DNA of 36,277 bases, from the NCBI GenBank assembly GCA_026395675.1, contig JAPLYF010000049.1, forward strand, positions 1-36,277, written 5' to 3'. The position numbers were made by a program, and so were the translations under genes. This stretch comes from Candidatus Parcubacteria bacterium. GTDB taxonomy: Bacteria; Patescibacteriota; Patescibacteriia; CAIXNZ01. Each line of letters opens with the position of its first letter. The stretch's first letter is position 1. Below are positions 1-32,060 of the stretch, one piece after another. The notes under the pieces were generated by a model that saw only the letters and a program-made list of their open reading frames with translations, did not search any database and had not been told where the DNA came from.

Positions 1-2175
1 ATTGAAAATAAAATTCTGCAAAGTATAGTCCGCGAATATGAGCGGCTGGAAAGAAAGAATAGTTATTTGGCTGACGGATTAAGGAAAATTTTTACTGATT
101 TTAATAAAAATTACGACAGCAAGCTTTTTGAGCCAGATATAATTGATTCTGAAAAATTTGAGATAGTTGAATATGCGGTGGCAGAAGTCATAGATAATTT
201 ATATAAAACTAAAGCAGGTATCCGTTATAATTTTGACCAAATACCGGCTGATATCCTGGGCAGTATTTATGAGCAATATTTAGGCAATATCCAGAGGGAA
301 GGCGAAGCCAAGGACTCTAAAAGTAAAAGAAAGTCCCAGGGCATTTATTATACGCCTCGTTACATAGTTGATTATATAGTTAAGAATACTGTTGGCGAAT
401 ATATTAAAGATAAAAGTTTGCATGATGTACAAAAGATTAAAATTTTAGACCCTGCTTGCGGTTCCGGCTCGTTTTTAATTCGTGCTTTTGAAGAATTAGA
501 TAATTATTTGGAAAAAGAAAAAAATCAGACGCAAAAAGACGATTTTAAGGATTATTTGCGTAAAATCCAAATTTTAAGCGAAAATATTTATGGAGTTGAT
601 CTGGACGACGAGGCGGTTGAATTGACTCGCCTGAATCTGCTTTTGAAAACAGCAACCAGAAAACACCCGCTCCCTGATTTGGCCGGCAATATTAAAAATG
701 GCAATTCTTTGATTTCCGGCACTGAAGCGGAAATGAAAAAAATTTATGGTAAAAATTGGGAAGATTTGAAACCATTTGATTGGAATGAACAATTTAAAGA
801 TGTTTTTAAACAAGGTGGTTTTGATGTGGTTATTGGTAATCCTCCATATCTGAAAGAGTTAGATAATAAAAGAATTTTTGAACCCATTAAAAAATCAGAA
901 TATAAAAAATATTATCAAGGCAAAATGGATTTTTGGTATTTCTTTTTGCATAGGGCAATAGATGTAGTTAAAGAGAACGGCATTATTGGTTTTATTACGA
1001 ACAGTTACTTTTTAAAAGGCGCTGGGGCTTCAAAATTAAATGATAGGATTAAAAATGAATTGGTTATGATAAAAGCCATTGATTTAGACGACATCAAAGT
1101 TTTTGGCGATGTGAGCGGAAAACATATTATCCATATTTATCAAAAAAGAAAAGCCGAAAAAAATGATAAAACTTTATACGTTAAAGTTAATAAGGAAAAT
1201 TTTGTGGGCTTTATTGATGAGTCATTAGGTAAAAAAATACCCTATAAAGACATAATAAGTGATAGTAAAGTTAGTTTTGAATATGGTGATAAAATTAACT
1301 TTAATGACTGCATCCAACTCGGAGATATATATGATGTATCCCAAGGAGTAGTTGAAGCTAACGCCCAAATTAGTAGGAAATCTCTATTAGAATTAAAAGA
1401 CACAAAATTTAAAGCAGGAGAGGGTGTTTTTGTTTTATCCAAAAAAGAATTAAGCGGGCTTAATTTGAATTCAGATGAAAAAAACGTAATAAAAAAATAT
1501 CTAAACACAAGTGATGTCGGAAAATATTCAATTAATTTTCATAATCAATACCTTGTTTATTCTGACAAGGAAATTAAGTATAAAATAAAAAAAGGCGAGT
1601 TGCTACATTTAAAAGAACATCTTGATAAGGTAAAAAAATTTATTACTTCCTCAAATAAGCCCTACGGATTACACAGGCCGAGAGAACAAAAATATTTTGA
1701 AGAGCCTAAATTAATATGCAAAGGGATGTTTTTACATCCAGAATTTACCCTTGATCAAGATAAGTATTACATGGGTTTTTCATTTTCTGTAATAATTCAA
1801 AAAGATAAAAATTATTCCTTAAGATATTTACTTGGGATTTTAAATTCAAGATTGGGAGAATATTGGTTTAATATTAACGGCAAAAAGAGAGGTATTGGAG
1901 TTGATATTGGTGTGTTAGTATTTAGGAAATTCCCTGTTTTAACAGCAACAAAAGAGCAACAGCAAATGATTGAAAAATTAGTAGATAAAATGATTAAACT
2001 AAATCAAGAACTACAAAAAATTGACCCGATTATGGATAAGGAGAAGTATGAGAAAAAGAAAAAGGAGATTGAGGAGACGGATGGGGAGATTGATAAGTTA
2101 GTGTATAAATTATATAATCTCACGTCAGAAGAGATTAAGATTGTTGACCCAGCCGTTCGCGAACAGCTGGGTTGA
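1..2175 (+). CDS. N6-adenine DNA methyltransferase, Eco57I/TaqI-like (type II or IIG restriction-modification); 5' end lies outside the window
   Basis: The frame is open from nt 1, with no stop before the listed TTG at 67. SAM motif I ILDPACGSGSFL and catalytic motif IV VIGNPPY are present. The C-terminal specificity-like region ends in LYNLTSEEIKIV, typical of this family. Confidence 0.85.
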   Translation: MENKILQSIVREYERLERKNSYLADGLRKIFTDFNKNYDSKLFEPDIIDSEKFEIVEYAVAEVIDNLYKTKAGIRYNFDQIPADILGSIYEQYLGNIQREGEAKDSKSKRKSQGIYYTPRYIVDYIVKNTVGEYIKDKSLHDVQKIKILDPACGSGSFLIRAFEELDNYLEKEKNQTQKDDFKDYLRKIQILSENIYGVDLDDEAVELTRLNLLLKTATRKHPLPDLAGNIKNGNSLISGTEAEMKKIYGKNWEDLKPFDWNEQFKDVFKQGGFDVVIGNPPYLKELDNKRIFEPIKKSEYKKYYQGKMDFWYFFLHRAIDVVKENGIIGFITNSYFLKGAGASKLNDRIKNELVMIKAIDLDDIKVFGDVSGKHIIHIYQKRKAEKNDKTLYVKVNKENFVGFIDESLGKKIPYKDIISDSKVSFEYGDKINFNDCIQLGDIYDVSQGVVEANAQISRKSLLELKDTKFKAGEGVFVLSKKELSGLNLNSDEKNVIKKYLNTSDVGKYSINFHNQYLVYSDKEIKYKIKKGELLHLKEHLDKVKKFITSSNKPYGLHRPREQKYFEEPKLICKGMFLHPEFTLDQDKYYMGFSFSVIIQKDKNYSLRYLLGILNSRLGEYWFNINGKKRGIGVDIGVLVFRKFPVLTATKEQQQMIEKLVDKMIKLNQELQKIDPIMDKEKYEKKKKEIEETDGEIDKLVYKLYNLTSEEIKIVDPAVREQLG

Positions 2176-2218
2176 GGGTCATCCTTCGTCCCGCGGTGCG
2201 GGACTACGGATGGCAGGG
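2176..2218. repeat. GC-rich REP-like hairpin, family 1 (outer stem tcatcc/ggatgg, inner stem tcccgc/gcggga)
   Basis: Palindrome read directly. It has the same ..CCTTCG..loop..CTACGG.. architecture as copies at 6546, 6604, 6669, 6794, 21195, 26585 and 32791. Confidence 0.8.
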
Positions 2219-2253
2219 AAATAAAAACTGTTGATAAAAAGTTTGACATGTTT

Positions 2254-2283
2254 TTGGCATTATTGGGCGCATTATGTTATAAT
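2254..2283 (+). promoter_or_regulatory. Putative sigma70-like promoter (TTGGCA-18 nt-TATAAT); would give a near-leaderless mRNA for the Panacea-like gene
   Basis: Hexamers read in the sequence. The ATG at 2290 lies 6 nt after the -10 box. Confidence 0.35.
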
Positions 2284-2289
2284 AAAAAC

Positions 2290-2769
2290 ATGAATGAAGA
2301 CAAAAAAACAAAACAAATAATATCCTATATTGTGCAAAACCATGAGAATAGTTCAGTCACGACAATAATGAAGTTGTTATATTTGGTTGATTTGATTAGC
2401 GTTAAAAAAACAGGTAAAAAAATAACTGATTTTGAGTATTTAAGGTATAATTATGGTCCATTTGATAAGCAGATATATAAATATCTGGAAGCTTTGTTAG
2501 AAGAAAAAGTTATTATAAGCAAATTAGTTTATTCCTCTGAGGGGAATGAAAATATAATATATTCTCTAAATGAAGAATCGGATGATATCAATTTCAATGA
2601 AATCCAGAAAGACGAATTAGTTTTAATTGATAATTTGTTAAATGATGTTAGGGGCTATGGCGCTAAAGCTTTAACCGAAATTGCCTATAAAACAAAACCA
2701 ATGCAGGCATTGGGAGCTACCTTAGGCGGCAATGAATCAATAGGCGCAAAATTAGATTTGTCATTATAA
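2290..2769 (+). CDS. Panacea-domain (DUF4065/SocA-like) antitoxin-like protein
   Basis: The segment IMKLLYLVDLISVKKTGKKITDFEYLRYNYGPF matches the KLxKLLY...W/YxYGP signature of DUF4065. Start trimmed from the listed 2248 to the ATG at 2290 because the first 14 residues overlap the predicted promoter. The start choice is uncertain. Confidence 0.65.
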   Translation: MNEDKKTKQIISYIVQNHENSSVTTIMKLLYLVDLISVKKTGKKITDFEYLRYNYGPFDKQIYKYLEALLEEKVIISKLVYSSEGNENIIYSLNEESDDINFNEIQKDELVLIDNLLNDVRGYGAKALTEIAYKTKPMQALGATLGGNESIGAKLDLSL

Positions 2770-2773
2770 ATTT

Positions 2774-3289
2774 ATGGCTTTAAAAAATATATGGCATGGG
2801 CTTATTTTGCTGAAAGTAAAAGCCAGAAATTTATACCTAGACAGAAAATCAATTGAACAAAATACGGGAGTGCAAAAAATAAAATATAAATTAGCGGCTA
2901 ACGTTCTAAAGGATTTGCAAATATATCCTTTTTTTATTTTAAGATCGGAATTGACATGCAGCAGATATTTTGCTTTTCAAATCGATAGGGGAGATTGGCT
3001 TCAATCAAGAGGCGATTATTTAAATAAACCTTGTTCATACATTGATATCAGATGTCCTGAAATAATAGGGCAAAATGAATTATATTTAAAAATTAGGGAT
3101 AAAAGAAATTTTTTTTCAGTGGCGCGTTTAAAAGATTCTAAATATAATGAAATGGTTAATTTCGCCGAAAGAATTAAAATGACAAGCGATGTAAGGGATG
3201 AGACAAAAGGTTTGATTCTTAAAGAATTAACAGGCGATACCCAGGGGATAAATATTGATAATTTTTTGGAAAAATATAAATTAGAATAA
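2774..3289 (+). CDS. Hypothetical protein with no family recognised; candidate toxin partner of the Panacea-like gene
   Basis: 171-aa ORF starting 5 nt after the upstream stop on the same strand. No TM segment and no motif I recognise. Confidence 0.5.
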   Translation: MALKNIWHGLILLKVKARNLYLDRKSIEQNTGVQKIKYKLAANVLKDLQIYPFFILRSELTCSRYFAFQIDRGDWLQSRGDYLNKPCSYIDIRCPEIIGQNELYLKIRDKRNFFSVARLKDSKYNEMVNFAERIKMTSDVRDETKGLILKELTGDTQGINIDNFLEKYKLE

Positions 3290-3365
3290 ATTAAAAAACT
3301 CGCAAGAAAAATAAAACAAAAATTGCTTTGCCCCTTTGGGGAGGCAGTGGATTTTACTCTTTTTC

Positions 3366-3394
3366 TTGACTTTTATTAGCCGTTTTGGTAAATT
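3366..3394 (+). promoter_or_regulatory. Putative promoter (TTGACT-17 nt-TAAATT) for the AbiEi-like gene; leaderless arrangement
   Basis: Hexamers and spacing read directly. The ATG at 3401 is 6 nt after the -10 box. Confidence 0.4.
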
Positions 3395-3400
3395 GACAAT

Positions 3401-4006
3401 ATGGTCAAATTAGTGAATCAGACAATTTTTTCCTCTAAAATAAAGGGAAAAAAGCTATTTATTTTTACCGCGGCTGACATCCGCACGCTTTTTGGTATTT
3501 CTAAAGTAGCTGCAGCAGCCTTACTCCACAGATATAAGAAAAGAGGGTTTATTTTACAGGTAAAACGGGGACTTTATGTTTTTCCGGATCTTTTGCCGCC
3601 GGATGTTTATGTTGCCAACAAGCTTTACAGCCCGTCTTATATCTCGCTTGAATTTGCGTTAGCCTATCATCGGGTCATTCCAGAGACAGTTTACGAAATA
3701 ACTTCGGTTACAACAAAAGCCACTCGCCGATTTGATGTTAAAGCATTAAAGAAAATTTTTTCTTACCGCAAAATAAAAAAAACCGCTTATACCGGCTATG
3801 GCGTCCAAAAACAGAATGATATTAGTTTTTATATCGCTGATGCTGAAAAGGCATTTGTAGATGCCAATTATTTGCGGATGCGGAATAAGCAGAAGCCGAT
3901 TTCCCGCTTTGACAATGATAAAATTAACAAAGATAAAGCGCTCAAGTATGCTTATTTATTTGGCAATAAAAAACTTATTAGTATTATTAAAACAACACTT
4001 AAATAA
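3401..4006 (+). CDS. AbiEi-family (type IV toxin-antitoxin antitoxin / transcriptional regulator) protein, orphan
   Basis: N-terminal wHTH-like region FTAADIRTLFGISKVAAAALLHRYKKRGFILQVKRGLYVF, followed by SPSYISLEFALAYHRVIPE. Both are characteristic of AbiEi proteins. No AbiEii nucleotidyltransferase follows. Confidence 0.65.
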   Translation: MVKLVNQTIFSSKIKGKKLFIFTAADIRTLFGISKVAAAALLHRYKKRGFILQVKRGLYVFPDLLPPDVYVANKLYSPSYISLEFALAYHRVIPETVYEITSVTTKATRRFDVKALKKIFSYRKIKKTAYTGYGVQKQNDISFYIADAEKAFVDANYLRMRNKQKPISRFDNDKINKDKALKYAYLFGNKKLISIIKTTLK

Positions 4007-4054: not shown

Positions 4055-5803
4055 ATGACTATCAACGATAAAATCAAACAGGAAATCGTTGGCCTTTTAA
4101 AAAAACAAAAGGTTAAGATTAAAATTGAGGAATTAGAAACACCGCCGTCAGCGGAAATGGGAGATTGGGCTTTGCCTTGTTTTAATTTGGCAAAAGAATT
4201 TAAACGTGCGCCGCAGGATATTGCTAAAGATTTTGCGCAAAATTTAAAACCCAGCGGTTTGATTATAAATTTCAAAAGCATTGGGCCTTATTTAAATTTT
4301 ATGATTGATGCCAGCAAGGTGGCAGAATTGGTTTTGAAAGAAATAAATAAAAGTAAAGGTAAATATGGGCAAAGCAAAATCGGTAAAAAAGAAAAGGTAA
4401 TGATTGAATATTCCCAGCCCAATACGCATAAGGAATTTCATGTCGGTCATTTGCGCAATGTTTGCATTGGCGCGTCTTTGGTTAATCTATACAAAAACTG
4501 CGGTTATAAAGTAATCAGCGCTAATTACCCGGCTGACAGTGGGGCGCATGTAGCCAAGACATTATGGTATTTGCAAAATTATACTAATCAAACAGATATT
4601 CCGTCTTTGCCAGAAGACCGCGGTGAATTTTTGGGCCAGACCTATGCGCGGGCAGTGGCAGAACTAACTGATCACCCAGAATTAAAGCCGCAAGTTCAGG
4701 ACATAATGTTAAAACTAGAAGCCGGGGATAAGGCCTTAATTAAATTATGGCAAGAAACCAGGCAATGGAGCTTGGACCAATTTAAAAAAATATATAAGGA
4801 ACTCGGGGTTGATTTTGATGTCTGGTTTTATGAAAGCGTGGAAGAAAAAGAAGGCAAAAAAATGTTACCTAAACTTTTAAAACATAATTTTATTAAAAAA
4901 AGCGAGGGCGCGATTATCGCTGATTTGGCCAAATATAATTTGGGCATTTTGGTTTTAATTCGTCAGGATGGAACAGCTTTATATGGCATTAAAGATATTG
5001 CTTTGGGAGTAAAAAAGTTTAAAAAATATAAAGTAAAAAAATCTATTTACGTGGTTGATACGCGGCAATCTCAATATTTAAAACAGATATTTAAAATTTT
5101 GGAATTAATGGGCTTTAAAAAAGCCATGATTCATGTGGCTTATGAATTTGTGGAATTAAAATCGGGCATAATATCTTCGCGCACTGGTAATATCGTGACT
5201 TATGAAGAAGTGAGGGATGTGGCTTTAAATAAAGTTTTGGCAGAAACTAAAGAGCGCCATTCTGATTGGAGCGAAAAGAAAATTATTGAAGTAAGTTTGA
5301 AAATTGTTCTGGCGGCATTGAAATTCGGCATGTTAAAAAGCGGCAATGATAAAGTCATAACTTTTGACATTAATGAGTCCCTTGATTTGAATGGCTTTAC
5401 CGGGCCTTATCTGCAATATACTTTGGCGCGTTTGAATTCTATTTTTAGGAAGATCAAAGGAATATCCGCCAGAGGCGCCGTGCCCGCCGGCAGGCAGGGA
5501 TCCGCCTTTGGCGGAAAAATTGATTATAAAAATTTGGCTGCGCTTATTGAAATTAAATTGATTAAAGATCTATTGGCATATCCTGATAAAATTTCAGAAA
5601 GTTTAAAATTAAATGACCCTTCGATTATTGCCCAATATTTATTTAAATTAGCCCAGGACTTTAATGCTTTTTATCATGAACTGCCGGTATTAAAATCAGA
5701 GCTTGATGTGCAGGCAGCACGGTTAGAATTGCTTTGGGCAATCGGACTGGTTTTAGAAAATGGTATGGGATTACTTGGTTTATCAATTTTGGAAGAGATG
5801 TAA
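4055..5803 (+). CDS. argS: Arginine--tRNA ligase
   Basis: HIGH motif HVGHLRN, class I catalytic core, and a C-terminal DALR-type anticodon-binding region (YLQYTLARLNSIFRK ... AARLELL). Length is typical. Confidence 0.93.
   Translation: MTINDKIKQEIVGLLKKQKVKIKIEELETPPSAEMGDWALPCFNLAKEFKRAPQDIAKDFAQNLKPSGLIINFKSIGPYLNFMIDASKVAELVLKEINKSKGKYGQSKIGKKEKVMIEYSQPNTHKEFHVGHLRNVCIGASLVNLYKNCGYKVISANYPADSGAHVAKTLWYLQNYTNQTDIPSLPEDRGEFLGQTYARAVAELTDHPELKPQVQDIMLKLEAGDKALIKLWQETRQWSLDQFKKIYKELGVDFDVWFYESVEEKEGKKMLPKLLKHNFIKKSEGAIIADLAKYNLGILVLIRQDGTALYGIKDIALGVKKFKKYKVKKSIYVVDTRQSQYLKQIFKILELMGFKKAMIHVAYEFVELKSGIISSRTGNIVTYEEVRDVALNKVLAETKERHSDWSEKKIIEVSLKIVLAALKFGMLKSGNDKVITFDINESLDLNGFTGPYLQYTLARLNSIFRKIKGISARGAVPAGRQGSAFGGKIDYKNLAALIEIKLIKDLLAYPDKISESLKLNDPSIIAQYLFKLAQDFNAFYHELPVLKSELDVQAARLELLWAIGLVLENGMGLLGLSILEEM
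5464..5517. repeat. Family 2 palindromic element inserted in frame in argS, in reverse orientation
   Basis: atccgccagaggcg...gatccgcctttggcggaaa is the reverse complement of the intergenic elements at 28218, 28629 and 31986 (tttccgccaaaggc...ggcggatc.gcctctggc.ga). It encodes about ISARGAVPAGRQGSAFGGK. Confidence 0.85.
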
Positions 5804-5890: not shown

Positions 5891-6545
5891 GTATTTCATA
5901 AACTAGTCATAGCTTTTCCCTCGGGTGCGGGGATGCTCCATCTGGTGTTTAATCAGGATCAACAGTGAGGAGGGCACCTCCTCTGATTAAGTGTCCAGAT
6001 TTTGCCGTTTTTACCGGCTTAACATTCGTGCCAGGCAGGCAGTGGAGACAAGTTCCTAAGCAATAACGTTAATAATACTTTTTTTAGTAATTTGGTTTCC
6101 CAATTCGGGAAACATTAAGTTTTTAACGTCAGCTGCTTGAGAGACTCGTTTGGGCTATGCGGCAGTTAAGAATGATGGTTTTGAAGAATGAAAAACCACT
6201 CCCCGAAATTTCCTTACCTAGTTTATGTTCACAATAATGCAAAATGGCAGTGCAATTTAAGTTTAAGGAAAAATTTTTAAATTGGCAATAGGTGTTCTGG
6301 TTTTTCCACAGAAAATGATTTAAGGTGTTTAAAATTTTTAACAAAAAGCCGCTCTTTTTGTCATTCCGAACGCAGTGAGGAATCCAGGATTATTCGCCTG
6401 GCCCTGAATGACAGAGGCGGCTTTTTCTTTTCCTGTGCATAAATCATCTAATTCTTATTAACACATTTTACTTAGAAAAATCTCTTGTCAGCAAAAACAG
6501 GCATGTTATTTTTAAGGCAGAAGCTTGAGCCAAAATTAGCTTGGG

Positions 6546-6821
6546 CACCCTCCTTCGTCCCGTTCGGCGGGACTACGGAGGGCTAAGTAAAAAAAATATG
6601 AAAGCCCTCCTTCGCACAAGGCTACGGAGGGCAAAGGGGGAAAATTATGAAAAACAAAAAACAAAACAGTCATCCTTCGCTAAAGCTACGGATGACAAGA
6701 AAGGAGGAAAATTTAGTAGCACACCTAAATAATTTTTGGGTGTTTTTTTGTTCGGCTAAAGCCGAAACATGTACCTTGAAAACATACTAACAGATCCGCC
6801 TTCGTTAAAACTTCGGCGGAT
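6546..6821. repeat. Cluster of five family 1 REP-like hairpins (6546-6583, 6604-6632, 6669-6696, 6794-6821, plus the gttcggctaaagccgaac hairpin at about 6751)
   Basis: Each copy has a 6-7 bp GC-rich stem around a TTCG..AAGCTAC-type loop. Stem sequences differ between copies (ccctcc, gccctcc, gtcatcc, atccgcc). Confidence 0.85.
6721..6749 (+). terminator. Intrinsic terminator (acacctaa/ttgggtgt stem plus TTTTTT) with no annotated gene upstream
   Basis: 8-bp stem, 7-nt loop and a 6-T tract, read directly. Confidence 0.55.
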
Positions 6822-7069
6822 TTAGAAAGGAGAGTTATTGAGGAAAATATTTAAAGCGGCAAAGGCGCGTAACTAGTTAACCCAGAATCTAAAATTTTTT
6901 GCAGGAGGTAATTTATAGCAAAAGCAAAAGAGGTATGCGGTGTAGTTTAAACTCTGCTTGGCGCGACCTTTGGCACGCCAAAAAGAGATAGCTCTGCCTT
7001 AGTCTGGCCAAGTGCTGGACAAGGCAGAGCAAACCTTTTAACTTCTAACAAGACCGACGAGGAGCAAAA

Positions 7070-9979
7070 ATGAAAAAAGTAATGGTTGTAATCGCGGCTT
7101 TAACCCTGGTCTGCCTTTTGTCTACCCAGGCTTTGGCGCACCAGATTTACATCAAGAAAAATCCAACCAATGAAAGTGGCATTGAATTTGGCGTGGATAA
7201 TGCCAGCGGTTTTGTGCGCTGGCGCGCCATTGCCAAAGGATTAACCAATAACAGTCGGGGCCAAAATACTGGCTGGACAGATACGGGCAATGGCTGGTGG
7301 TATTATGATGTGTCTTCAATTACCCAAAGAGTAATGTGGCGACTGGATGGAATTGCCAACCAGAATTTTGTCATCACCTACTGGGTTTTTAAAAGTGATG
7401 GCACATGGGAATATGGTCCGCAAGTCCAGGTTACTTCTGATCAGATTCTGCCCACTGCCAGCTTTACAAACATTTACAATGGCCAGACCTTCAGCCAAGC
7501 GCAGTTTAATATTTCTGTTTCCTCAAGTGACAATTTGAGCGGCGTTGATTCTATCAGAATCTATGCCGTGGTTCCTAGCGGTAACAGCTTGAGCGGTTGG
7601 ATACCTTCTGGCATTGCCAATCAGTTTTACAAAGAATTTGCCGGCACATCCGTCAGCTATAATTTTTCAGCCCCGGCTGAAGGCAATTATACTTTCACAC
7701 TTTGGGTTAAAGACAAAGCAAGCAATATTGCCTATGAACCAGGCGGCCCAATAACAGTTATTGTTGATTTGCCTGCGCCTATTCCGCCACCACCAGCTCC
7801 ACCCAATGCGCCCAGCAATTTAAATCTGACAATCTCAGGGCAAAATATTATTGCTTCTTGGCAAGATAATTCTAGCGACGAAGACGGCTTTAACCTTTAC
7901 CGCAATGGCAGTTTATTGAAAACTCTGGCAGCGAATTCAACTTCGTTTGTTGACACTGGTTTGCAATATAACCAGAGCTATTGTTACAGCATTTCTGCCT
8001 ACAAAGGCAGCTTAAGCAGTTCTGCGATAGAAAGCTGCGCTACAATACCAGCTCCGCCTGCTCCGGATTATCATTATGCTGACAGCTTTACCTACCCCAT
8101 GTCCTGCGACAAAATCTACAGGATTGAGACCGATGCGCAAATCCCGGTCGGTGCCTGCTTTGACTATCAGCCCTTTTGCTCTCTTTTTTCCTACAGTGAT
8201 GAATGTCATCAGGGCAGCGATTTGAATCTTAAAGGAGTCAATGATTTGGGTGCGCCGGTATATGCCATTGCTAATGCCTTGGTTTGGGACTATGGCTGGA
8301 CTAGTGGCTGGGGAAATTACTTGATCTTAAGAATCCAGGCCTCTGCTGGTAAAAGTTTTAATTTATCGGACGGAACAATCGTTACTGAAATTTTCGTCCT
8401 TTATGGCCACCTTAATGAAATCAAAATCATTAAGGATAATGGTGTGATAATTGAAAAAGCCAATATTGTTAAGCAAGGCACATATGTGGCCAAAGGCTGG
8501 CAAATTGGCACTGTCGGCGACGGCAATGGCAATTTTAGCCCGCATTTGCATTTTGAAATTCGGATCAATGGCTATAGCCAGCTTGGCAATGGTTATTGGC
8601 CGGTATCAGATTTGAATTACCTAAAATATTTCGTGGACCCGATTGAGTTCATTGAAAATAATTGGCTGCCAGCCAATCGAACGCTTCAGATTATGGTGCA
8701 TGGCTATGATCGCCAATCCAGCCGTAAAGTTTTTCTGGATCTTGATCCTGCTTTGTGGCAGCGCCAGGGCAGGCAAACTGATGGTTTGCCTTTGGCAGCT
8801 GTTGGCTTGGCCAACCATATTTGGCTGACAAGTTCAGCAAAAAATACTGCTGCTTCCTGGAATTTTCATGTGCCTCAAAGCGGCGCTTATTCATTATTTC
8901 TGATTATGCCACGCTATTATGGCACGGCCAATAATGTGCTTTATACTGTCTGGCACAGCAGCCAAAAGGTTGCCAGCCCCTATGAAGTGCGTTTGAGCCA
9001 GACCAATAATAATGAGAACAAGAAAATCTATCTGGGCACCTTTGACTACTATCAGGGCTCGCACTACTCAGTTGATGTTGGTAGTTTGACCTCTGATAAT
9101 CCAGCCAAGAATGTAGCGCTTGATAGCCTGATTTTGATCTACGAAGGCGATTTGGGAACAGGCGGCGGTCCAGTTATTCCGCCAGCAGATCCGCCACCGG
9201 ACAATGAAATTAAAACTGTTAATTCAGCCGGTTCCTTAACCTTCAAATACATTGGCGCATATTCAAAGCCAGAATTACACTGCAGCGGAGGAGGCCTGAC
9301 CTGGGGAGATGCGATTTTATCAGGCGGGCTGACAGAAACGACTGTCAGTGTTATTCAATCAGAACAGGTCATCTGCAATATCTTGTTTGAAGACGGAACA
9401 TGGCTGGCTGATTCTCAAGGCCTAAAAATCGGGGAACAGCTTTTGGCTAATGACCAGCTGATTAATGCCACGCTGGATAATGGGCTAGGCGGCAGCAATC
9501 TGGTTTTTAACTTGATTGTTGACGGTCAGATTAAAACCATTAATTCCAGCGGCACCATTAACTTCACTTACGCCGGCACTTATTCCACTCCCGAATTGCA
9601 TTGCAGCGGCGGTGGTCTGGCCTGGGAAAATATAATTTTAACAGGCGGCGCCAAGCAAAATACCGCTACAGTCACTCAGTCAGGTCAAGTCATCTGCAAC
9701 ATCAAGTTTGAAGATGGAAACTGGCTGGCTGACTATTTCGGGCTCATGGCTAATCAGACGCTGTTAGTTGAAAATCAGGAAATTACAACCCTGCAGGATA
9801 ATGGCCTGGGCGGAAAAAACTTGGTTTTTAATCTGCAGCTAAATTCTGCTGCGCCGCCTGTTGGCTGCAGCCTGGATTCTAGCCAAGCAGTCTTTACCTG
9901 GGCAACCTGCCTAAATCTGCTCTTTCTTTTCTCTCCTCTCTTTTTCCTTTTGGCGCGCAAGGTAAGAAAATTTACCTAA
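7070..9979 (+). CDS. Large secreted multidomain protein with an M23 (LytM-type) metallopeptidase domain, an FN3-like domain, a 107-aa tandem repeat and a C-terminal hydrophobic anchor
   Basis: Signal peptide MKKVMVVIAALTLVCLLSTQALA. M23 motifs HQGSD (HxxxD) and PHLHFE (HxH). FN3-like segment PSNLNLTISGQNIIASWQDNSSDEDGFNLYRNG. C-terminal TM segment followed by RKVRK. Confidence 0.8.
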   Translation: MKKVMVVIAALTLVCLLSTQALAHQIYIKKNPTNESGIEFGVDNASGFVRWRAIAKGLTNNSRGQNTGWTDTGNGWWYYDVSSITQRVMWRLDGIANQNFVITYWVFKSDGTWEYGPQVQVTSDQILPTASFTNIYNGQTFSQAQFNISVSSSDNLSGVDSIRIYAVVPSGNSLSGWIPSGIANQFYKEFAGTSVSYNFSAPAEGNYTFTLWVKDKASNIAYEPGGPITVIVDLPAPIPPPPAPPNAPSNLNLTISGQNIIASWQDNSSDEDGFNLYRNGSLLKTLAANSTSFVDTGLQYNQSYCYSISAYKGSLSSSAIESCATIPAPPAPDYHYADSFTYPMSCDKIYRIETDAQIPVGACFDYQPFCSLFSYSDECHQGSDLNLKGVNDLGAPVYAIANALVWDYGWTSGWGNYLILRIQASAGKSFNLSDGTIVTEIFVLYGHLNEIKIIKDNGVIIEKANIVKQGTYVAKGWQIGTVGDGNGNFSPHLHFEIRINGYSQLGNGYWPVSDLNYLKYFVDPIEFIENNWLPANRTLQIMVHGYDRQSSRKVFLDLDPALWQRQGRQTDGLPLAAVGLANHIWLTSSAKNTAASWNFHVPQSGAYSLFLIMPRYYGTANNVLYTVWHSSQKVASPYEVRLSQTNNNENKKIYLGTFDYYQGSHYSVDVGSLTSDNPAKNVALDSLILIYEGDLGTGGGPVIPPADPPPDNEIKTVNSAGSLTFKYIGAYSKPELHCSGGGLTWGDAILSGGLTETTVSVIQSEQVICNILFEDGTWLADSQGLKIGEQLLANDQLINATLDNGLGGSNLVFNLIVDGQIKTINSSGTINFTYAGTYSTPELHCSGGGLAWENIILTGGAKQNTATVTQSGQVICNIKFEDGNWLADYFGLMANQTLLVENQEITTLQDNGLGGKNLVFNLQLNSAAPPVGCSLDSSQAVFTWATCLNLLFLFSPLFFLLARKVRKFT
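9209..9850 (+). repeat. Two tandem 321-nt (107-aa) coding repeats inside the M23 protein
   Basis: IKTVNSAGSLTFKYIGAYSKPELHCSGGGLTW...NLVFNL compared with IKTINSSGTINFTYAGTYSTPELHCSGGGLAW...NLVFNL. Confidence 0.85.
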
Positions 9980-18973: not shown

Positions 18974-21184
18974 ATGATAGATTGGATTATTTTGATAATA
19001 ATCTTATTATTTTTTGGAATACTTGCATTTCTATCATTGAAGTCAAATATAAATAGCGTTTCTAATAGAAATTTTGCCTATCTAATTATTACAGGTGGAT
19101 TTTGGATTTTATTTAACTTTTTAGAAAATGAAATTCATGATCTATTTATAGCAAGAAATTTTTTAACATTAGATTTTATTTTTGCGGCCTTAATGGTTTA
19201 TTTCTTCCTTATATTTGCTCTTTATTTTACTGATTCTAAATTAATAGTATATAAAAGTATATTTATTATTTATACATTATTTGTCATATTGAGTGTTTTT
19301 TTAAATTTTGTAATAGTAAATATTAGATTTGAAAATCAAACCATTGTTTTTGATCAAGGTTTCCTCTATTATTTTTATGCTATCCAACCATTTTTATTTG
19401 TAATTGTGAGTTTAAAAGTTTTTATCAGTAAATATTTAAAAAGTTTTGGTCTTTATCGATTACAATTAACTTATATAATATTAGGACTTACTTTAGCGGC
19501 ATTATTAGGACTAGTCTCGAATTTAATTTTACCTCAACTAGGGATCACCGATATTAGTATTTTAAGATTGGGAATTTATGGTATGGTATTTGTAATTGGC
19601 TTTACCTCTTATGCTATATTAAAATACCGCCTCATGGACATTCGCGTCATTATCCGTCGTTCAGCAGTGTTTACTGTATTAGTTTTGTTAATTACGGCCT
19701 TGTATGCAGTTCTTTCATATTTATTAAGCTTGGTCTTTACAGAATTAATCGGTATCCAGTCAGTGATTATAAACGGCATTGTCATGGCTGTACTTGTGGC
19801 TATTGGCTTTGAGCCATTGAAGAAATTTTTATCTGAAATCACAGATAGTTTTTTATTCAAGGCAGAGTACAAGCCCCAGGAAGTTCTGGGGGAATTTGCT
19901 GATAAATTATCTTCCACTTTGAATTTAAATGAATTAACCCAGTTTTTAGTTAAAAAAACCAGCGAGGTTTTTAAGTGCGCCAAATCCTCGCTTTATTTAT
20001 TTAATGAAGAACATAAGGAATATCAGGAAGTGGCCATGTGGGGCAAACCAAGTACGGCGCCGACCAAAAATATTGATCAGAAATTATTTACAAAAATTTT
20101 TAGTTATTTAAACCAAATCGGTAAGTCAAAAGACATTATTGTTAGAGAAGAAATTAAAAAAATCAATGAGCAGTTTAAAAATCCCATTTTGGATCTTTTA
20201 ATCAAACAGTTGGATTCGCGGGAAGTGAATTTGATTGTACCCTTTTATGTTAAAGAAGAATTGATCGGCATTTTATTCCTGGGAGATAAAAAGTCAGGAG
20301 ATGTTTATTCCCAGCAGGATTTAAATGTTTTGGAAATCATTGCCGGCCAGTCAGCGGTCTCCATTCAGAATGCCGGGCTTTTTGAAGAGCAAAAGCACTT
20401 TGCCGAACATTTGAAAAAAGAAGTTGACAAGGCCACTAAGGAATTACAAATCGCTAATGTGCAGTTAAGAAAATTGGATAAGGCCAAGTCAGAATTTATT
20501 TCCATTGCTTCGCACCAGTTAAGAACACCTTTAACAGTTATCCGCGGCTATATTTCCATGATTGAACAAGGTGATTTTGGCGTAGTCTCGCATAAAGTTC
20601 AACAACCTTTGGACCGCGTTTATAAAAGTACCATGAGGATTATTGGCTTGGTTGAGGATTTATTGAACATTTCTCGTATTGAAAGCGGCCGCTTAAAATA
20701 TGATTTTATTAAGACTGATTTAATTACTCTGGTGGCTGATGTTTATGATGAATTAAAACAACAAGCCAAAAATAAGGGCTTACAATTTGAATTTATTAAG
20801 CCAACCAAAGAAATTCCCCAGCTGGTTTTGGATCAGGGCAAAATCAGGGAGGTAATCATGAATTTGATTGATAATTCCATTAAATACACTGATTCTGGTT
20901 TTGTCAGAGTAAAATTGGAGCGTGATGACGACCATGTTACTTTCAGCGTCAGTGATTCTGGCCGCGGACTGGCTACTGATGAGATACCTTTATTATTCCA
21001 AAAGTTTTCTAGGGCCAAAGGCGCGCAATTAATGCACACTGAAGGCACCGGACTAGGCCTTTATATTGCTAAAAATATTATTGCCAAGCACAGCGGCAAA
21101 ATCTGGGTTGAAAGCCCGGGTCCTGGCAAGGGCTCTACTTTTTATATAAGGTTTAGGATTGAGAATAAGAGGCTGGAAAAATAA
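18974..21184 (+). CDS. Sensor histidine kinase with a multi-TM N-terminal sensor, GAF-like region, HisKA and HATPase_c domains
   Basis: H-box SIASHQLRTPLT, N-box NLIDNSIKYT, G1 SDSGRGL and G2 GTGLGLYIAKNI. About 8 N-terminal TM helices. No response regulator adjacent. Confidence 0.9.
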   Translation: MIDWIILIIILLFFGILAFLSLKSNINSVSNRNFAYLIITGGFWILFNFLENEIHDLFIARNFLTLDFIFAALMVYFFLIFALYFTDSKLIVYKSIFIIYTLFVILSVFLNFVIVNIRFENQTIVFDQGFLYYFYAIQPFLFVIVSLKVFISKYLKSFGLYRLQLTYIILGLTLAALLGLVSNLILPQLGITDISILRLGIYGMVFVIGFTSYAILKYRLMDIRVIIRRSAVFTVLVLLITALYAVLSYLLSLVFTELIGIQSVIINGIVMAVLVAIGFEPLKKFLSEITDSFLFKAEYKPQEVLGEFADKLSSTLNLNELTQFLVKKTSEVFKCAKSSLYLFNEEHKEYQEVAMWGKPSTAPTKNIDQKLFTKIFSYLNQIGKSKDIIVREEIKKINEQFKNPILDLLIKQLDSREVNLIVPFYVKEELIGILFLGDKKSGDVYSQQDLNVLEIIAGQSAVSIQNAGLFEEQKHFAEHLKKEVDKATKELQIANVQLRKLDKAKSEFISIASHQLRTPLTVIRGYISMIEQGDFGVVSHKVQQPLDRVYKSTMRIIGLVEDLLNISRIESGRLKYDFIKTDLITLVADVYDELKQQAKNKGLQFEFIKPTKEIPQLVLDQGKIREVIMNLIDNSIKYTDSGFVRVKLERDDDHVTFSVSDSGRGLATDEIPLLFQKFSRAKGAQLMHTEGTGLGLYIAKNIIAKHSGKIWVESPGPGKGSTFYIRFRIENKRLEK

Positions 21185-21194
21185 TCATTAACTT

Positions 21195-21223
21195 ATCCGC
21201 CTACGCGTAAAGCTTCGGCGGAT
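21195..21223. repeat. Family 1 REP-like hairpin (atccgcc/ggcggat)
   Basis: Read directly, immediately after the kinase stop. Confidence 0.8.
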
Positions 21224-21234
21224 TGGGAAAAAAT

Positions 21235-23794: not shown

Positions 23795-23883
23795 GCAAAA
23801 TCTGGGTGGAAAGCCCGGGTCCAGGCAAGGGTTCCACTTTTTATATCAGGTTTAGGATAAATAATAAGAGGTTGGAAAAGTAA
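23795..23883 (+). pseudogene. Relic copy of the last about 28 codons of the histidine kinase gene (KIWVESPGPGKGSTFYIRFRINNKRLEK*)
   Basis: Nucleotide-level similarity to 21096-21184 (GKIWVESPGPGKGSTFYIRFRIENKRLEK*). No upstream kinase body is present. Confidence 0.8.
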
Positions 23884-23889
23884 AAAACT

Positions 23890-24030
23890 ATTATCAGCGG
23901 CTTTAGCCGCTGCACAGTTACGAAGTGGCTGATCGTTAATCAGATGAACTTCCCTAATAAAATTCTGCGACTTTGTCGCAGTGCGCTTGCTTCCGCCGTC
24001 GCTTTGCTTTGGCGGACAGGAAAGCAAGCG
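23890..24030. repeat. Left composite repeat (hairpins cagcggc/gccgctg, ctgcgac/gtcgcag, and nested gcttgctt..ccgcc..ggcgg..aagcaagc)
   Basis: Aligns with 24683-24822 in direct orientation. The hairpin modules are near-identical and the AT-rich linker has diverged. Confidence 0.85.
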
Positions 24031-24177
24031 ATAATTGTTTTCGTATATTTTTAAAAAGATATTATCAGAGGCTTTAGCCTCTGCACGGCCACTATGTGGC
24101 CGAAAAAGAATTCATGATTCAGCAGCTTTGCTGCTGTGCGGACGCTAAAGCGTCCGATAATTAATAAAAGAAATTCC

Positions 24178-24675
24178 ATGGAGTTTTATTTGGATAATAA
24201 TTATTTTTTTATTACCTGCCGGACAATTGATGGCAGGGATTATTTTTTAGAAAATGAAATAAGAGGTTATATTTTAGATCTATTTAAAAAAATTGAACAA
24301 AATTTTAGTGTTAAATTTTGTGCTTATAGTATTTTATTGAATCATTACCATTTCTTGTTATATTTACAGAAGGGGAAAGAAATACATGAAATAATTCATA
24401 AAATAAATGGGAATATTTCCTATTATTTAAAAGATGCGCCAAAACCTTTGTGGGATATTTATCATAACAGCAATGCTTTTAACGAAGATTCATTTTATAA
24501 GATAATAGGTTATATCGCAGGCAATCCTTTTAAACATGGATTGGTAAAAGATATTGAGGACTTGAAAAATTATAGATTTAGTAACTATAATGAATTAGCT
24601 GATAAATATGGCTATGATGGTATTAATGAAATTATTAGCAATGTACATCGGTTGAATTGGGAATTAAAATTATAA
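24178..24675 (+). CDS. REP-associated tyrosine transposase (RAYT) / IS200-like Y1 HUH transposase
   Basis: HUH motif in LLNHYHFLL. Catalytic Tyr motif IGYIAGNPFKHGLV. N-terminal YFFITCRT. 165 aa from the ATG at 24178; the listed GTG at 24136 lies in a hairpin repeat. Confidence 0.75.
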   Translation: MEFYLDNNYFFITCRTIDGRDYFLENEIRGYILDLFKKIEQNFSVKFCAYSILLNHYHFLLYLQKGKEIHEIIHKINGNISYYLKDAPKPLWDIYHNSNAFNEDSFYKIIGYIAGNPFKHGLVKDIEDLKNYRFSNYNELADKYGYDGINEIISNVHRLNWELKL

Positions 24676-24682: not shown

Positions 24683-24822
24683 ATTATCAGCGGCTTTAGC
24701 CGCTGCACAGCCACGCAGTGGCTGATCGTTACACATGTAAACTTTTTAATAATATTCTGCGACTTTGTCGCAGTGCGCTTGCTTCCGCCGTCGCTTTGCT
24801 TTGGCGGACAGGAAAGCAAGCG
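24683..24822. repeat. Right composite repeat, a direct copy of 23890-24030
   Basis: See the left copy. Confidence 0.85.
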
Positions 24823-24882
24823 GTAATTAATTTAGCTTCGGCGGACAGGAAAGCGGCCGATAATATAAATAATTCTAAAAAT

Positions 24883-26051: not shown

Positions 26052-26100
26052 CAAGCAGGTTTCTGCCTACGCTAAAGCTTCGGCCGACAGGCAAATCCTG
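26052..26100. repeat. 49-bp REP-like element flanked by a 10-bp direct repeat (tcctcggcat) that includes the tRNA-Leu 3' end
   Basis: tcctcggcat occurs at 26042-26051 and again at 26101-26110. The core is ctgcctacgctaaagcttcggccgacagg. Confidence 0.7.
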
Positions 26101-26137
26101 TCCTCGGCATTAATTAAATAATTACTTCAAGAGTTTT

Positions 26138-26504: not shown

Positions 26505-26584
26505 TTGACGTAAATTTTCTTTTCTGTAATTATTTAAGCAAGTTAAAAGGGGGCCAATTCTTGGCTCTTTTAAAATTTAACAAG

Positions 26585-26613: not shown

Positions 26614-26630
26614 AGGGAGGTTAGTTAAAG

Positions 26631-28217: not shown

Positions 28218-28252
28218 TTTCCGCCAAAGGCGGATCAGCCTCTGGCTGAAAA
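28218..28252. repeat. Family 2 element, minimal form: two adjacent hairpins tccgcc-aaa-ggcgga and tcagcc-tct-ggctga
   Basis: Read directly. Confidence 0.85.
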
Positions 28253-28628: not shown

Positions 28629-28684
28629 TTTTCCGCCAAAGGCCTGGCCTTGGCCAAGACAGGCGGATCAGCCTCTGGCTGATA
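28629..28684. repeat. Family 2 element with an extra palindrome (ggcctggccttggccaag) inserted in the first hairpin loop
   Basis: Same termini as 28218-28252, with an expanded interior. Confidence 0.85.
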
Positions 28685-31985: not shown

Positions 31986-32060
31986 TTTCCGCCAAAGGCC
32001 TGGGCCTTGGCTCGCATAGGCGAAGCCTTGCCAAGACAGGCGGATCCGCCTCTGGCGGAC
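31986..32060. repeat. Family 2 element, most expanded form, between nusA and yidC
   Basis: tttccgccaaaggcc...ggcggatccgcctctggcggac, with additional internal palindromes. Confidence 0.85.

Follow-up and report, generated by a model that had tools for sequence, protein, structure and literature searches.

A GC-rich segment lying in frame within the arginyl-tRNA synthetase gene (argS) of this Candidatus Parcubacteria contig is probably a tolerated insertion of a non-autonomous mobile palindrome resembling REPs and Rickettsia palindromic elements (RPEs), and probably a translated one, translation being inferred. Judged from its sequence, the argS copy is a core of 30 nt, made of two hairpin units, plus a nested 21-nt third hairpin, giving 51 nt. 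The same element occurs between genes elsewhere in the window (the whole stretch of 36,277 nt that was analyzed) and in genomes labelled as many phyla. The host gene and the parts of the element within it are:

4055..5803, + strand: argS, the intact host gene, encoding an arginyl-tRNA synthetase (ArgRS) of 582 aa; based on a single ORF, Pfam domains and homologues
5465..5515, - strand (the orientation common to the intergenic copies): 51-nt double-hairpin element in frame in argS; based on alignment, GC content and fold
5465..5477, + strand: 5' part of the second 15-nt unit (TCCGCCAGAGGCG); based on its alignment (A5) to the 30-nt short form
5478..5498, + strand: nested 21-nt third hairpin (CCGTGCCCGCCGGCAGGCAGG); based on alignment A5
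5501..5515, + strand: intact 15-nt hairpin unit TCCGCC-TTT-GGCGGA (S-A-F-G-G); a perfect hairpin

The initial annotation of this DNA had claimed that the insertion keeps the reading frame, and this holds: positions 4055-5803 form one ORF of 582 aa whose product scores above the cut-offs for all three ArgRS domains of Pfam (Arg_tRNA_synt_N, tRNA-synt_1d, and DALR_1). The product also matched solved ArgRS structures, and its homologues number in the thousands, the closest alignable ones being 85-87% identical (alignment A1). An AF2 model of ArgRS with the insert reached a pLDDT of 87.9 and a pTM of 0.89, and residues 469-484 were the sole long stretch with pLDDT below 50. The insert loop is located between helices 450-471 and 497-519, within the Pfam DALR_1 span (residues 453-582) and after the first DALR helix, not in a linker before the anticodon-binding domain as had been proposed. 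The corresponding loop is short and variable in solved ArgRS structures. A structural check had been recommended at the outset; in the model, the insert maps to a loop predicted to be disordered, which supports the view that ArgRS tolerates it.

The element (TCCGCCAGAGGCGCCGTGCCCGCCGGCAGGCAGGGATCCGCCTTTGGCGGA) has a GC content of 76%, compared with 35% for the rest of argS, and it folds into one long hairpin (-37 kcal/mol, z = -3.9). Its + strand encodes 17 residues, SARGAVPAGRQGSAFGG (ArgRS residues 471-487); the gain of about 19 residues given by the initial annotation must therefore be lowered to 17 encoded residues and a net +13 relative to the closest orthologues. The second 15-nt unit is interrupted by the nested insert, its last two bases (GA) being found at 5499-5500, and the arms TCCGCCARAGGCG and CGCCTYTGGCGGA are inverted repeats, meeting the MITE criterion of terminal inverted repeats. 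The nested 21-nt insert is also present in two other loci, L112 and L054. The L112 copy, 51 nt from a MAG labelled Bacteroidetes, is identical to the argS copy at 50 of 51 bases, and its core TGCCTGCCGGCAGGCA is a perfect palindrome.

Alignment confirmed the proposal that the argS segment is the reverse complement of an intergenic element, with 5465-5515 (51 nt) as the element proper, and the nucleotide similarity survived formal alignment (A5). Once reverse-complemented, the argS element starts with a 19-mer (TTTCCGCCAAAGGCGGATC) identical to the start of the copy at 28218 and ends with GCCTCTGGCGGA, which matches the copy at 31986 (alignment A5); the unit TCCGCC-TTT-GGCGGA, likewise reverse-complemented, opens the intergenic copies. 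The positions first given for these copies (28218, 28629, and 31986) were correct within 1-2 nt:

28220..28249, + strand: intergenic short form of 30 nt (TCCGCCAAAGGCGGA + TCAGCCTCTGGCTGA), copy A; based on motif matches
28632..28682, + strand: intergenic 51-nt form (30 nt with a 21-nt hairpin nested in the first loop), copy B
31988..32059, + strand: intergenic 72-nt form (30 + 42 nt), copy C; nusA stops upstream of it at 31966, and yidC probably starts downstream at 32073 (ATG)

Copies A and B are missing from a syntenic relative (L126), copy A being absent from the orthologous spacer. The L126 counterpart of copy C is a 10-nt spacer between the end of nusA (13564) and the start of the next gene (13575; PF02096, YidC family). 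The inner module of copy C is homologous to a 42-nt in-frame insert located near residue 69 in another ArgRS, P0007. Copy B starts 21 nt past the stop of a conserved 82-aa ORF (28362-28610), and its second hairpin was flagged as terminator-like; by inference, intergenic copies placed just past stop codons may act as stabilising or terminator-like hairpins. The 14-mer TTTCCGCCAAAGGC has 4 exact occurrences in the window and 7 with at most 2 mismatches, for 0.73 expected, and none of 100 shuffles reached 7. The 3' half of the element gave 4 matches for 0.00 expected, all within the three intergenic copies; the argS copy is not among them because the nested 21-nt hairpin splits its half. In all, the window has 4 copies of the element in 36 kb. 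At the gathering threshold, Rfam found no family in the whole window except one tRNA, and searching around the argS insert with E up to 10 returned only noise.

None of the five closest orthologues in the ArgRS alignment (P0002-P0006; 569 aa, 85-87% identity, alignment A1) has the segment; they are 13 residues shorter, and the DNA of the site is AT-rich in the two orthologues that were read (P0006 in L001 and P0003 in L005). The comparison with orthologues suggested by the initial annotation thus agrees with an insertion. An empty-site allele of this argS, defined by the window flanks with a gap of 5-35 nt, gave 0 matches in JGI metagenomes, so that, without a near-identical empty allele, the insertion looks like +17/-4 residues relative to the closest orthologues, not like a clean event. 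The best explanation of these alignments is that the element would have entered argS after the lineage split from its closest known relatives. The point of entry would be the loop that joins the first and second helices of DALR, the gene being kept open.

Other lineages carry GC hairpins in the same ArgRS loop. In P0009, a similar peptide (ISAFGGK) is encoded by the GC hairpin TTCCGCCTTCGGCGGAA, one lone 15-nt unit at the same site, and P0112 has another GC hairpin in a different frame. A homologous peptide without REP-like DNA, which would have refuted the insertion, was not seen, the only similar one being that of P0009. In L005, the short form is found in frame within a gene with CCA-adding-enzyme (PolyA_pol) domains. 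One could imagine that the insert has been co-opted, i.e. that the peptide loop or the mRNA hairpin (-37 kcal/mol) now serves ArgRS through translation pausing between subdomains or tRNA contact, for example. The location in the anticodon-binding domain and the recurrence of GC hairpins there in three lineages (the window, P0009, and P0112) would fit such a role. However, the three inserts differ in length and frame, the closest relatives manage without any insert, the loop is predicted to be disordered, the same element occurs in dozens of unrelated proteins, and a permissive loop accounts equally well for the recurrence at this spot. We consider co-option quite improbable and infer that the element may rather be selfish, and neutral or slightly harmful, than useful.

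In order to sample the family beyond the window, we ran pattern scans, which retrieved at least 119 genome stretches and at least 120 metagenome stretches. Both scans were constrained by the pattern, so that family size, real conservation, and taxon range were merely sampled, and the phylum labels are taken from record titles, apart from the T9SS-domain check described below. The family core is a 30-nt double hairpin of two 15-nt units, TCNGCC-NNN-GGCNGA, commonly TCCGCC-NNN-GGCGGA. Among the matches listed, copies were found in Patescibacteria, Ignavibacteria, Bacteroidota, Omnitrophota, KSB1, Elusimicrobia, and others, and their sources include an isolate genome (Stygiobacter electus), a single-cell genome, and long-read MAGs. 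One Doudnabacteria MAG holds at least 3 strict matches, the two contigs concerned adding up to about 1.6 Mb. In unit 2, covariation was seen at the third stem pair (C-G, A-T, T-A, and G-C), which indicates that the hairpin is under selection. Many copies are located at the tip of a larger inverted repeat or within a loop belonging to another hairpin family (L046, L080, L103, L027, L118, L014, L053, and L073).

Several genome copies have tRNA-like flanks, and those of L031, L097, and L025 resemble 5' tRNA fragments; the flank in L071 is CysRS coding sequence. Insertion into tRNA genes was rejected after ARAGORN, run with or without computational excision of the element, detected no tRNA spanning it. 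The element pattern gave 0 matches in IMG/VR, and BLAST of the element against PLSDB plasmids and INPHARED phages returned nothing. Full-text literature searches, both for the sequence (nucleotide or peptide) and for REP/RAYT in Patescibacteria, retrieved no account of this element.

Between 33% and 51% of the sampled copies lie in long ORFs, considering the genome and metagenome matches listed. The host genes include those encoding Mfd, MurA, MurF, CysRS, GH57, and T9SS sorting domains; the Pfam domains of MurA, CysRS, GH57, and MurF continue across the inserts, and the Mfd insert sits between the DEAD and Helicase_C domains. The palindrome TCC-GCC-NNN-GGC-GGA reads Ser-Ala-x-Gly-Gly from either strand. 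This SAxGG frame (SAxGGSAxGG) is used by 34 of the 39 copies inside long ORFs among the genome matches listed (p = 5e-12) and by 53 of the 63 genic copies among the matches listed from the independent metagenome sample. Copies ending in GGCTGA, which have a TGA in the SAxGG frame, are genic in 3 of 33 cases, whereas GGCGGA copies are genic in 31 of 69 (Fisher p = 3e-4). Moreover, every module of the element is a multiple of three bases, and the common GGA variant is stop-free in all frames; as a result, the argS frame is not closed, and the element would be read as the peptide SARGAVPAGRQGSAFGG, a loop rich in Ser, Ala and Gly. From these frame statistics only, genic copies appear to be translated as short Ser/Ala/Gly loops.

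Alternatively, the element could be excised from the transcript, or ribosomes could pass over it, as for T4 gene 60 or the mitochondrial byp elements. The strong hairpin would be compatible with this, and the GGA codons at 5459-5461 (two codons upstream) and 5513-5515 superficially resemble take-off and landing sites. Nevertheless, no stop follows the putative take-off codon, the insert is open and in frame, there is no Rfam match, and neither the frame preference of the family nor the under-representation of TGA variants in genes would be expected of a skipped sequence. Ribosomal bypass of the argS insert was rejected on account of the lack of a stop codon and the frame statistics, and non-translation in general seems to us very improbable. 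We retain translation of the insert as the preferred reading.

The T9SS sorting domains (TIGR04183) show the insertion site in both states, either empty (CCN TTY AAY CCN) or filled with exactly 30 nt. The element fills such sites in either orientation, and the loci concerned are labelled Bacteroidota and Ignavibacteria. Comparison of empty and filled T9SS sites revealed no duplicated target bases, and the MITE criterion of a target-site duplication is not met. The insertion site is TTY|AAY, and the flank consensus of the family is tTT | element | AAa; the argS element, with flanks ATA | AAAA, matches the TT|AA preference on one side only. IS200/IS605 elements are characterized by subterminal hairpins, absence of target duplication, and insertion beside a short specific target. 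The corresponding criterion (hairpin ends, no target duplication, and insertion beside a short fixed target) is met by the element.

These filled and empty sites also bear on whether the resemblance between copies could be a chance effect of composition or an assembly artefact. This explanation has nothing in its favour except that the motif is short and of low complexity, and it is contradicted by the shuffle statistics, by the copies in isolate, single-cell, and long-read genomes, by the covariation, by the frame bias, and by the precision of the filled and empty sites. We regard it as scarcely credible.

The window encodes a candidate for a mobilising enzyme, a RAYT-like gene set between repeat arrays:

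23890..24160, + strand: double-hairpin repeat array upstream of the RAYT gene; same architecture as the argS element, different stems
24178..24675, + strand: RAYT-like Y1 (HUH) transposase gene (Y1_Tnp, REP_Tyr_transpos); action on the element not shown
24683..24865, + strand: double-hairpin repeat array downstream of the RAYT gene; based on repeat comparison

The RAYT-like product scores 33 bits with Pfam Y1_Tnp (cut-off 23) and 64 bits with NCBIfam REP_Tyr_transpos (E = 1e-17), which is under the cut-off of 80; one homologue carries the JGI name RayT. In L126, the RAYT is flanked by double-hairpin arrays in the same arrangement as in the window. Palindromes flank each of the four RAYTs examined (window, L126, L058, and L071), but they differ from the argS-type element, and in these four cases the REP criterion of a cognate RAYT flanked by the same repeat is not met. 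A RAYT as the cognate enzyme was rejected: among the matches listed, a profile made from the RAYT family of the window matched 2 of 119 genome loci and 0 of 120 metagenome loci, and the RAYTs of the two matched loci have their own, different flanking palindromes. When 2,130 ORFs taken from the 119 genome loci listed were clustered all against all, no transposase emerged, the sole enriched family being the T9SS-domain proteins that host the element.

We can only tentatively propose that the element would be moved as single-stranded hairpin DNA by a HUH/Y1 transposase (RAYT or IS200/IS605 type) acting in trans; this is the most speculative of our proposals, there being no biochemical data, and it remains doubtful. 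The spread could also be transposase-free, through template switching, gene conversion, or hairpin-directed repair at short T/A microhomologies, with environmental DNA uptake carrying copies between phyla. This route would accommodate the lack of a linked transposase and of a target-site duplication, the copies at inverted-repeat apices and in the loops of other hairpins, and the lone 15-nt unit at the argS site of P0009. However, copying within genomes fails to explain 51-nt copies that are 98% identical in MAGs labelled Bacteroidetes and Patescibacteria, the route does not account for the element having repeatedly entered TTY|AAY sites with exact ends and in either orientation, and donor-recipient homology beyond 2-3 nt is not visible. 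Spread without any transposase therefore appears unlikely to us.

A broader interpretation, for which we see about equal chances of being right or wrong, is that the argS insert is a copy of an undescribed 30-nt mobile element that crosses phyla, is among the smallest known, and is built for life inside genes. If this is true, essential proteins (aminoacyl-tRNA synthetases, SecA, FtsK, Mur enzymes, and T9SS sorting domains) of Patescibacteria, the FCB group, Omnitrophota, and other hosts gain flexible loops from the element; the precise TT|AA insertion context cannot yield a hairpin followed by a U-tract, i.e. an intrinsic terminator, in either direction; and the route between phyla bypasses the known phages and plasmids searched. 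So far, in-frame selfish palindromes have been regarded as an oddity limited to Rickettsia and some species rich in REPs, and a much smaller element would behave likewise in essential genes across numerous uncultivated lineages. If this is borne out, it would constitute a recurrent natural supply of loop insertions in conserved proteins, leading to a map of insertion-tolerant positions, as well as a marker for recent DNA exchange between Patescibacteria and other phyla in shared habitats. It would also pose a clean problem of transposition mechanics, namely exact insertion of 30 nt at TT|AA without duplication. Finally, annotators would be warned that GC-rich blips or SAxGG loops in AT-rich MAG proteins are repeat insertions, and neither sequencing errors nor lineage-specific functional motifs.

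Among known systems, the IS200/IS605-derived PATEs share with the element two subterminal hairpins, the absence of target duplication, and a short specific target. They differ in that no full-length parent with these ends was found for the element, which, at 30 nt, is far below the known left-end plus right-end pairs and is inserted in both orientations at the same site. REPs and REPINs resemble the element in being GC-rich stem-loops (20-40 nt), two of which often combine head to head to form a bigger hairpin; most copies lie 3' of genes, and some inside ORFs. The REP criterion of a 20-40 nt GC-rich palindrome in inverted doublets is met by the two 15-nt units forming one long hairpin. A GTAG or CGTC terminal tag defines REP/RPE-type repeats, and REPs are also known inside genes (Di Nocera et al. 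2013, PMC3733652). This tag was found in none of 111 aligned copies of the element, and the REP tag criterion is not met. Moreover, REP families are usually species- or genus-specific, unlike the element, of which the same sequence occurs across phyla and a third to half of the sampled copies are genic.

Bacterial MITEs can fuse in frame with ORFs, as described for Coxiella QMITE1 and intragenic ERIC (cited in PMC10969869). Like the element, MITEs are non-autonomous sequences ending in inverted repeats that can lengthen or interrupt an ORF in frame; they are, however, 100-400 bp long with target-site duplications, whereas the element is an order of magnitude smaller and shows no duplication. 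Tiny GC-rich modules are also known as mitochondrial double-hairpin elements, GC clusters, and repetitive hairpin-forming elements (PMC4478555, PMC2800124). These modules, like the element, invade AT-rich genomes, nest, and are sometimes found in coding regions; being organellar and unrelated in sequence, the mitochondrial hairpin elements offer an analogy and not a membership.

RPEs are palindromic repeats inserted in frame in housekeeping genes (Ogata et al. 2000, summarised in PMC10969869). RPEs are about 150 bp long, with a consensus of about 100-150 bp for RPE-1 to RPE-10; the peptides that they encode are conserved and tens of residues in length, and they are found in Rickettsia only, whereas the element has 30-72 nt, encodes 10-24 residues, and occurs in loci labelled as many phyla; the RPE criterion of a 100-150 bp consensus (approximately) restricted to Rickettsia is not met. 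No sequence relationship with RPEs was detected, without formal alignment to an RPE consensus, and a transposase is known for neither. The initial annotation had viewed the argS insert as an independent case of what is known from Rickettsia. This stands insofar as an in-frame palindrome works like an RPE, but the case is neither isolated nor lineage-specific, the family spanning many phyla and many housekeeping genes. The criterion of in-frame insertion in functional genes is met, with translation inferred from frame bias, and RPEs share with the element their presence in frame in unrelated housekeeping genes, an extra peptide compatible with the fold, and additional copies between genes.

The arginyl-tRNA synthetase (ArgRS) gene of interest lies in an AT-rich contig (37% GC) whose proteins have, by homology search, their nearest relatives in Parcubacteria/Patescibacteria MAGs.

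4055-5803: argS, a single ORF of 582 aa with all three arginyl-tRNA synthetase Pfam domains
5465-5515: double-hairpin element copy in argS, 51 nt, 76% GC versus 35% in the remaining gene, TCCGCCAGAGGCGCCGTGCCCGCCGGCAGGCAGGGATCCGCCTTTGGCGGA

The initial annotation had described a repeat within argS that matches intergenic copies, and this similarity proved to be real rather than due to chance, as judged from match counts and formal alignment. The 14-mer TTTCCGCCAAAGGC occurs in the window 4 times exactly and 7 times with at most two mismatches versus 0.73 expected, and the 3' half of the element has 4 matches versus 0.00 expected, all within three intergenic copies; the argS copy is missing from the latter because a nested hairpin splits that half. 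In alignment A5, the first 19 bases of the reverse-complemented argS element are those of the repeat at 28218, and its end is like that of the repeat at 31986. The four window copies (28220-28249, 30 nt; 28632-28682, 51 nt; 31988-32059, 72 nt; argS, 51 nt) are 30 nt long or exceed this by one or two inserts of 21 nt, the longer copies being nested hairpins.

Comparison with relatives identifies the argS segment as an insertion. The five closest ArgRS orthologues (P0002-P0006, 569 aa; 85-87% identity in alignment A1) have RKLGKVNT..KIDYK in place of the window's RKIKGISARGAVPAGRQGSAFGGKIDYK; the net gain is thus 13 residues instead of the about 19 originally proposed. The DNA at this site, read for only two of the five (P0006, locus L001; P0003, locus L005), is AT-rich and without hairpin. 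A homologous peptide encoded by DNA without REP-like character would have refuted the insertion; the more distant P0009 (74% identity in A1) does show ISAFGGK at this position, but the peptide is encoded by a single hairpin unit, TTCCGCCTTCGGCGGAA, so that case does not arise. Related GC modules also occur in other ArgRS genes: in P0112 the loop at this site holds another GC palindrome, TCCCGCCATGGCGGGA, read in a different frame, and in P0007 an in-frame insert of 42 nt close to residue 69 is homologous to the interior of the window copy 31988-32059. The intergenic copies 28220 and 28632 are absent from L126, a relative with conserved gene order, and in this relative 10 nt separate nusA from the gene that follows (PF02096, YidC family), where the window has the 72-nt copy. 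In L005, a gene with CCA-adding-enzyme (PolyA_pol) domains carries the short form in frame close to its N-terminal end (…LLKKF-SAKGGSASGG-KDS); the available sequence of its L001 orthologue ends at …LLKKF. No near-identical empty allele of the window argS was found in JGI metagenomes.

Relatives have tyrS directly upstream of argS, where the window has other genes (67-4006), apparently a small island for defence or toxin-antitoxin functions:

67-2175: Eco57I/MmeI-like DNA methyltransferase
2248-2769: SocA/Panacea-domain protein, followed by an unknown ORF
3401-4006: AbiEi-like antitoxin

An AlphaFold2 model of the window ArgRS, for which 31 orthologues were used, has high overall confidence (pLDDT 87.9, pTM 0.89), and the insert (residues 469-484) is its only long segment with pLDDT below 50. 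This segment lies between helices 450-471 and 497-519. Since Pfam places DALR_1 at residues 453-582, these helix positions put the loop within the anticodon-binding domain, past its first helix, and not in a linker preceding that domain, as had been suggested. The solved ArgRS structures 2ZUE, 1IQ0, and 1BS2 align on both sides of the insert, where their own loop is shorter and varies in length.

Searches of public sequences indicate an element family much wider than the window's genome. Using the pattern TTCCGCCAAAGGC-N(0-30)-GGATC-N(1-31)-GCCTCYGGC on one genome per GTDB species, we retrieved at least 119 matching stretches, where we estimate about 0.1 by chance in the collection; at least 120 stretches matched in JGI metagenomes with both stems fixed and the loops free. 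The stems were preset in both scans, thus the family is only a pattern-bound sample and its identity across phyla is partly a product of the search. Within these limits, a near-perfect palindrome of 30 nt, with variants, describes the family best. Among the metagenome matches listed, the loops drift (AAA/AGA versus TCC/TCT/TTC/TCG), and the third stem pair of unit 2 covaries among the genome matches listed (C-G 65, A-T 31, T-A 3, G-C 2, with about 10 irregular copies). The flanks of the genome copies are unrelated to one another; the 51-nt long form of argS is found with 50/51 identity in L112, a locus labelled Bacteroidetes, and as a close variant in L054 (Doudnabacteria). Record titles among the listed genome matches include many Patescibacteria classes, Ignavibacteria (including the isolate Stygiobacter electus), Bacteroidota, and Omnitrophota, along with a KSB1 single-cell genome, Margulisiibacteriota, Elusimicrobia, Kiritimatiellia, Lentisphaerales, Planctomycetia, and several "Gammaproteobacteria" MAGs. 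Phylum labels mostly derive from these titles and are unverified, with the sole exception of hosts with T9SS type A sorting domains, inside which several copies lie (TIGR04183, above cut-off). Such domains are a feature of the FCB group and are not known from Patescibacteria.

Among the genome matches listed, 39 of 120 copies are in frames with 60 or more open codons to either side. This is a mechanical ORF call, and hosts were confirmed in a few cases only, six by Pfam and four by NCBIfam. By sequence inspection, the hosts are ordinary, mostly essential proteins (Mfd, MurA, LeuRS, IleRS, CysRS, FtsK, SecA, MurF, and a GH57 enzyme); Pfam domains span the insert in MurA, CysRS, GH57, and MurF, the DEAD and Helicase_C domains of Mfd flank the insert, and the LeuRS fragment matches class I synthetase domains. 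As many as 34 of the 39 genic copies are read as SAKGGSASGG or, in the opposite orientation, SA(G/R)GGSAFGG, versus one third expected (p = 5e-12), and in the independent metagenome sample 63 of the 123 copies listed are genic, 53 of them in the SAxGG frame. The variant ending in GGCTGA, which places TGA in this frame, is genic in 3/33 cases versus 31/69 for GGCGGA (p = 3e-4; genome matches listed). A sequence spliced out or skipped would show neither the frame bias nor the depletion of the TGA variant, and we reject this possibility; in the absence of expression data, translation of the genic copies is inferred from these two biases. The argS copy is the stop-free variant in the favoured frame, while the intergenic copies 28220 and 28632 are TGA variants.

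The T9SS hosts allow a comparison of sites before and after insertion. Empty sites read CCN TTY AAY CCN (…NPF|NP…), whereas filled sites have exactly 30 nt between TTY and AAY, with zero duplicated bases and the element in both orientations; the labels of these loci are Bacteroidota and Ignavibacteria. Another hot spot of this domain is likewise an F|N junction. Overall, the copies have T-rich left and A-rich right flanks, also where the search did not impose it; those of argS (ATA|AAAA) fit this preference on one side only. If the target is assumed to be TT|AA, the phase xTT-TAA would be impossible in an ORF and two phases would remain. On this reasoning, the excess of SAxGG over PPxAD (34:4 in genomes and 53:8 in metagenomes, among matches listed) points to selection on the peptide. 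By the same assumption, T's before and A's after the hairpin on either strand would leave no hairpin-U-tract within a gene, and the element would never be shaped like an intrinsic terminator there.

Many intergenic copies form the tip of larger inverted repeats or lie inside loops of another hairpin family. Some (L019, L057, L102, L104, L112) are within short tandem repeats or between 7-18 nt direct repeats (e.g. AAACAGC in L102, GTTTCGAGTYTCAAGT in L112), in contrast with the duplication-free T9SS sites. At four loci (L031 2300-2460; L097, first 60 nt; L025 2490-2600, minus strand; L110), the initial 16-17 nt of a tRNA gene (acceptor stem and D-arm) stand immediately before the element; no complete tRNA could be rebuilt by excising the element from these loci, and L031 has an intact tRNA-Asp with the same 5' end about 105 nt downstream of it.

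The window also encodes a potential mobilising enzyme of the RAYT type:

23890-24160: double-hairpin array
24178-24675: RAYT-like Y1 transposase gene (Pfam Y1_Tnp above cut-off; NCBIfam REP_Tyr_transpos 64 bits, below the cut-off of 80)
24683-24865: double-hairpin array

These arrays have the architecture of the argS element with different stems (e.g. CAGCGGC-TTTA-GCCGCTG-CA-CAGCCAC-GCA-GTGGCTG), and together with the gene they look like a REPtron in a Patescibacteria genome; a full-text search found no literature linking RAYT or REPIN to Patescibacteria. The RAYT of L126 has the same flanking arrangement, and the RAYT-like genes in two listed genome loci are each flanked by yet other palindromes. 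In a Saccharibacteria MAG, the palindrome flanking a RAYT-like gene (L058 6342-7220) also has in-frame copies within that gene (TTTTATCGGGGACTGTCCCCGATAAAAT, translated as ILSGTVPDK). Just upstream of the window RAYT is an 89-nt, 89% identical copy of a histidine-kinase 3' end (21096-21184 copied at 23795-23883), and in L126 the RAYT directly follows the histidine-kinase gene, an arrangement suggesting that the RAYT and its upstream flank moved together.

Hairpin ends, a fixed short target, and the lack of duplication make HUH/Y1 single-strand transposition the best fit among known mechanisms for the element itself; the action of such an enzyme is inferred, and we regard it as possible rather than probable. 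Among the genome and metagenome matches listed, no gene recurs beside the element except the T9SS-domain hosts, and searches of viral and plasmid collections found no copy of the element. Spread by transposase-free copying remains a live alternative to HUH/Y1 transposition.

The window contains further repeats. A hypothetical protein (ORF 33276-34307) contains a second in-frame GC-rich hairpin insert of a different family at 33495-33560 (TCCGCC-TTCGC…AATGC-TACGGCGGA, with a nested CTGCC…GGCAG hairpin), read as PPSRLPTLKLRQAGNATADEG. NusA is 53 aa longer than in L126, and the 3' end of its gene (31690-31950) encodes a tail that consists in part of translated CC-TTCGC-NNAAGC-TACGG hairpin copies (ASSAEATEA, ASAFAEATADR); one such unit (HPSHKATDG) is found at the yidC 3' end (32792-32826), near the C-terminus. 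A second abundant hairpin family (e.g. CCCTCCTTCGCATAAAGCTTCGGAGGG; repeats D1 and D3) occurs at 6543-6826, 21196-21230, 26061-26618, and 33508-33542, filling the spacer downstream of argS and the surroundings of the tRNA at 26431-26504, a region with 135-bp tandem repeats as well; the double-hairpin element is nested in the loop of this family in other genomes (L014, L053, L073). Unrelated to the element are a 212-nt internal repeat of an M23-peptidase gene (9200-9411 and 9521-9732) and intergenic pairs of 76-77 nt (22399-22474/22718-22793 and 35365-35441/36103-36179).

The element is not described in any paper retrieved by full-text searches, which covered its nucleotide and peptide strings as well as REP/RAYT in Patescibacteria. 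Unlike REP/REPIN sequences, it bears neither a GTAG nor a CGTC tag, no RAYT partner was found for it, and its location may not be mainly extragenic, with a third to a half of the sampled copies genic; it differs from MITEs in not duplicating its target. Mitochondrial double-hairpin elements and GC clusters (PMC4478555, PMC2800124) are analogues only. REPs are found inside genes in several species (Di Nocera et al. 2013, PMC3733652), and the element resembles these as an intragenic repeat. The likeness to Rickettsia palindromic elements (PMC10969869) noted in the initial annotation holds in that the element is in frame, structurally tolerated and, by inference, translated; unlike them, it is neither confined to Rickettsia nor of their size.
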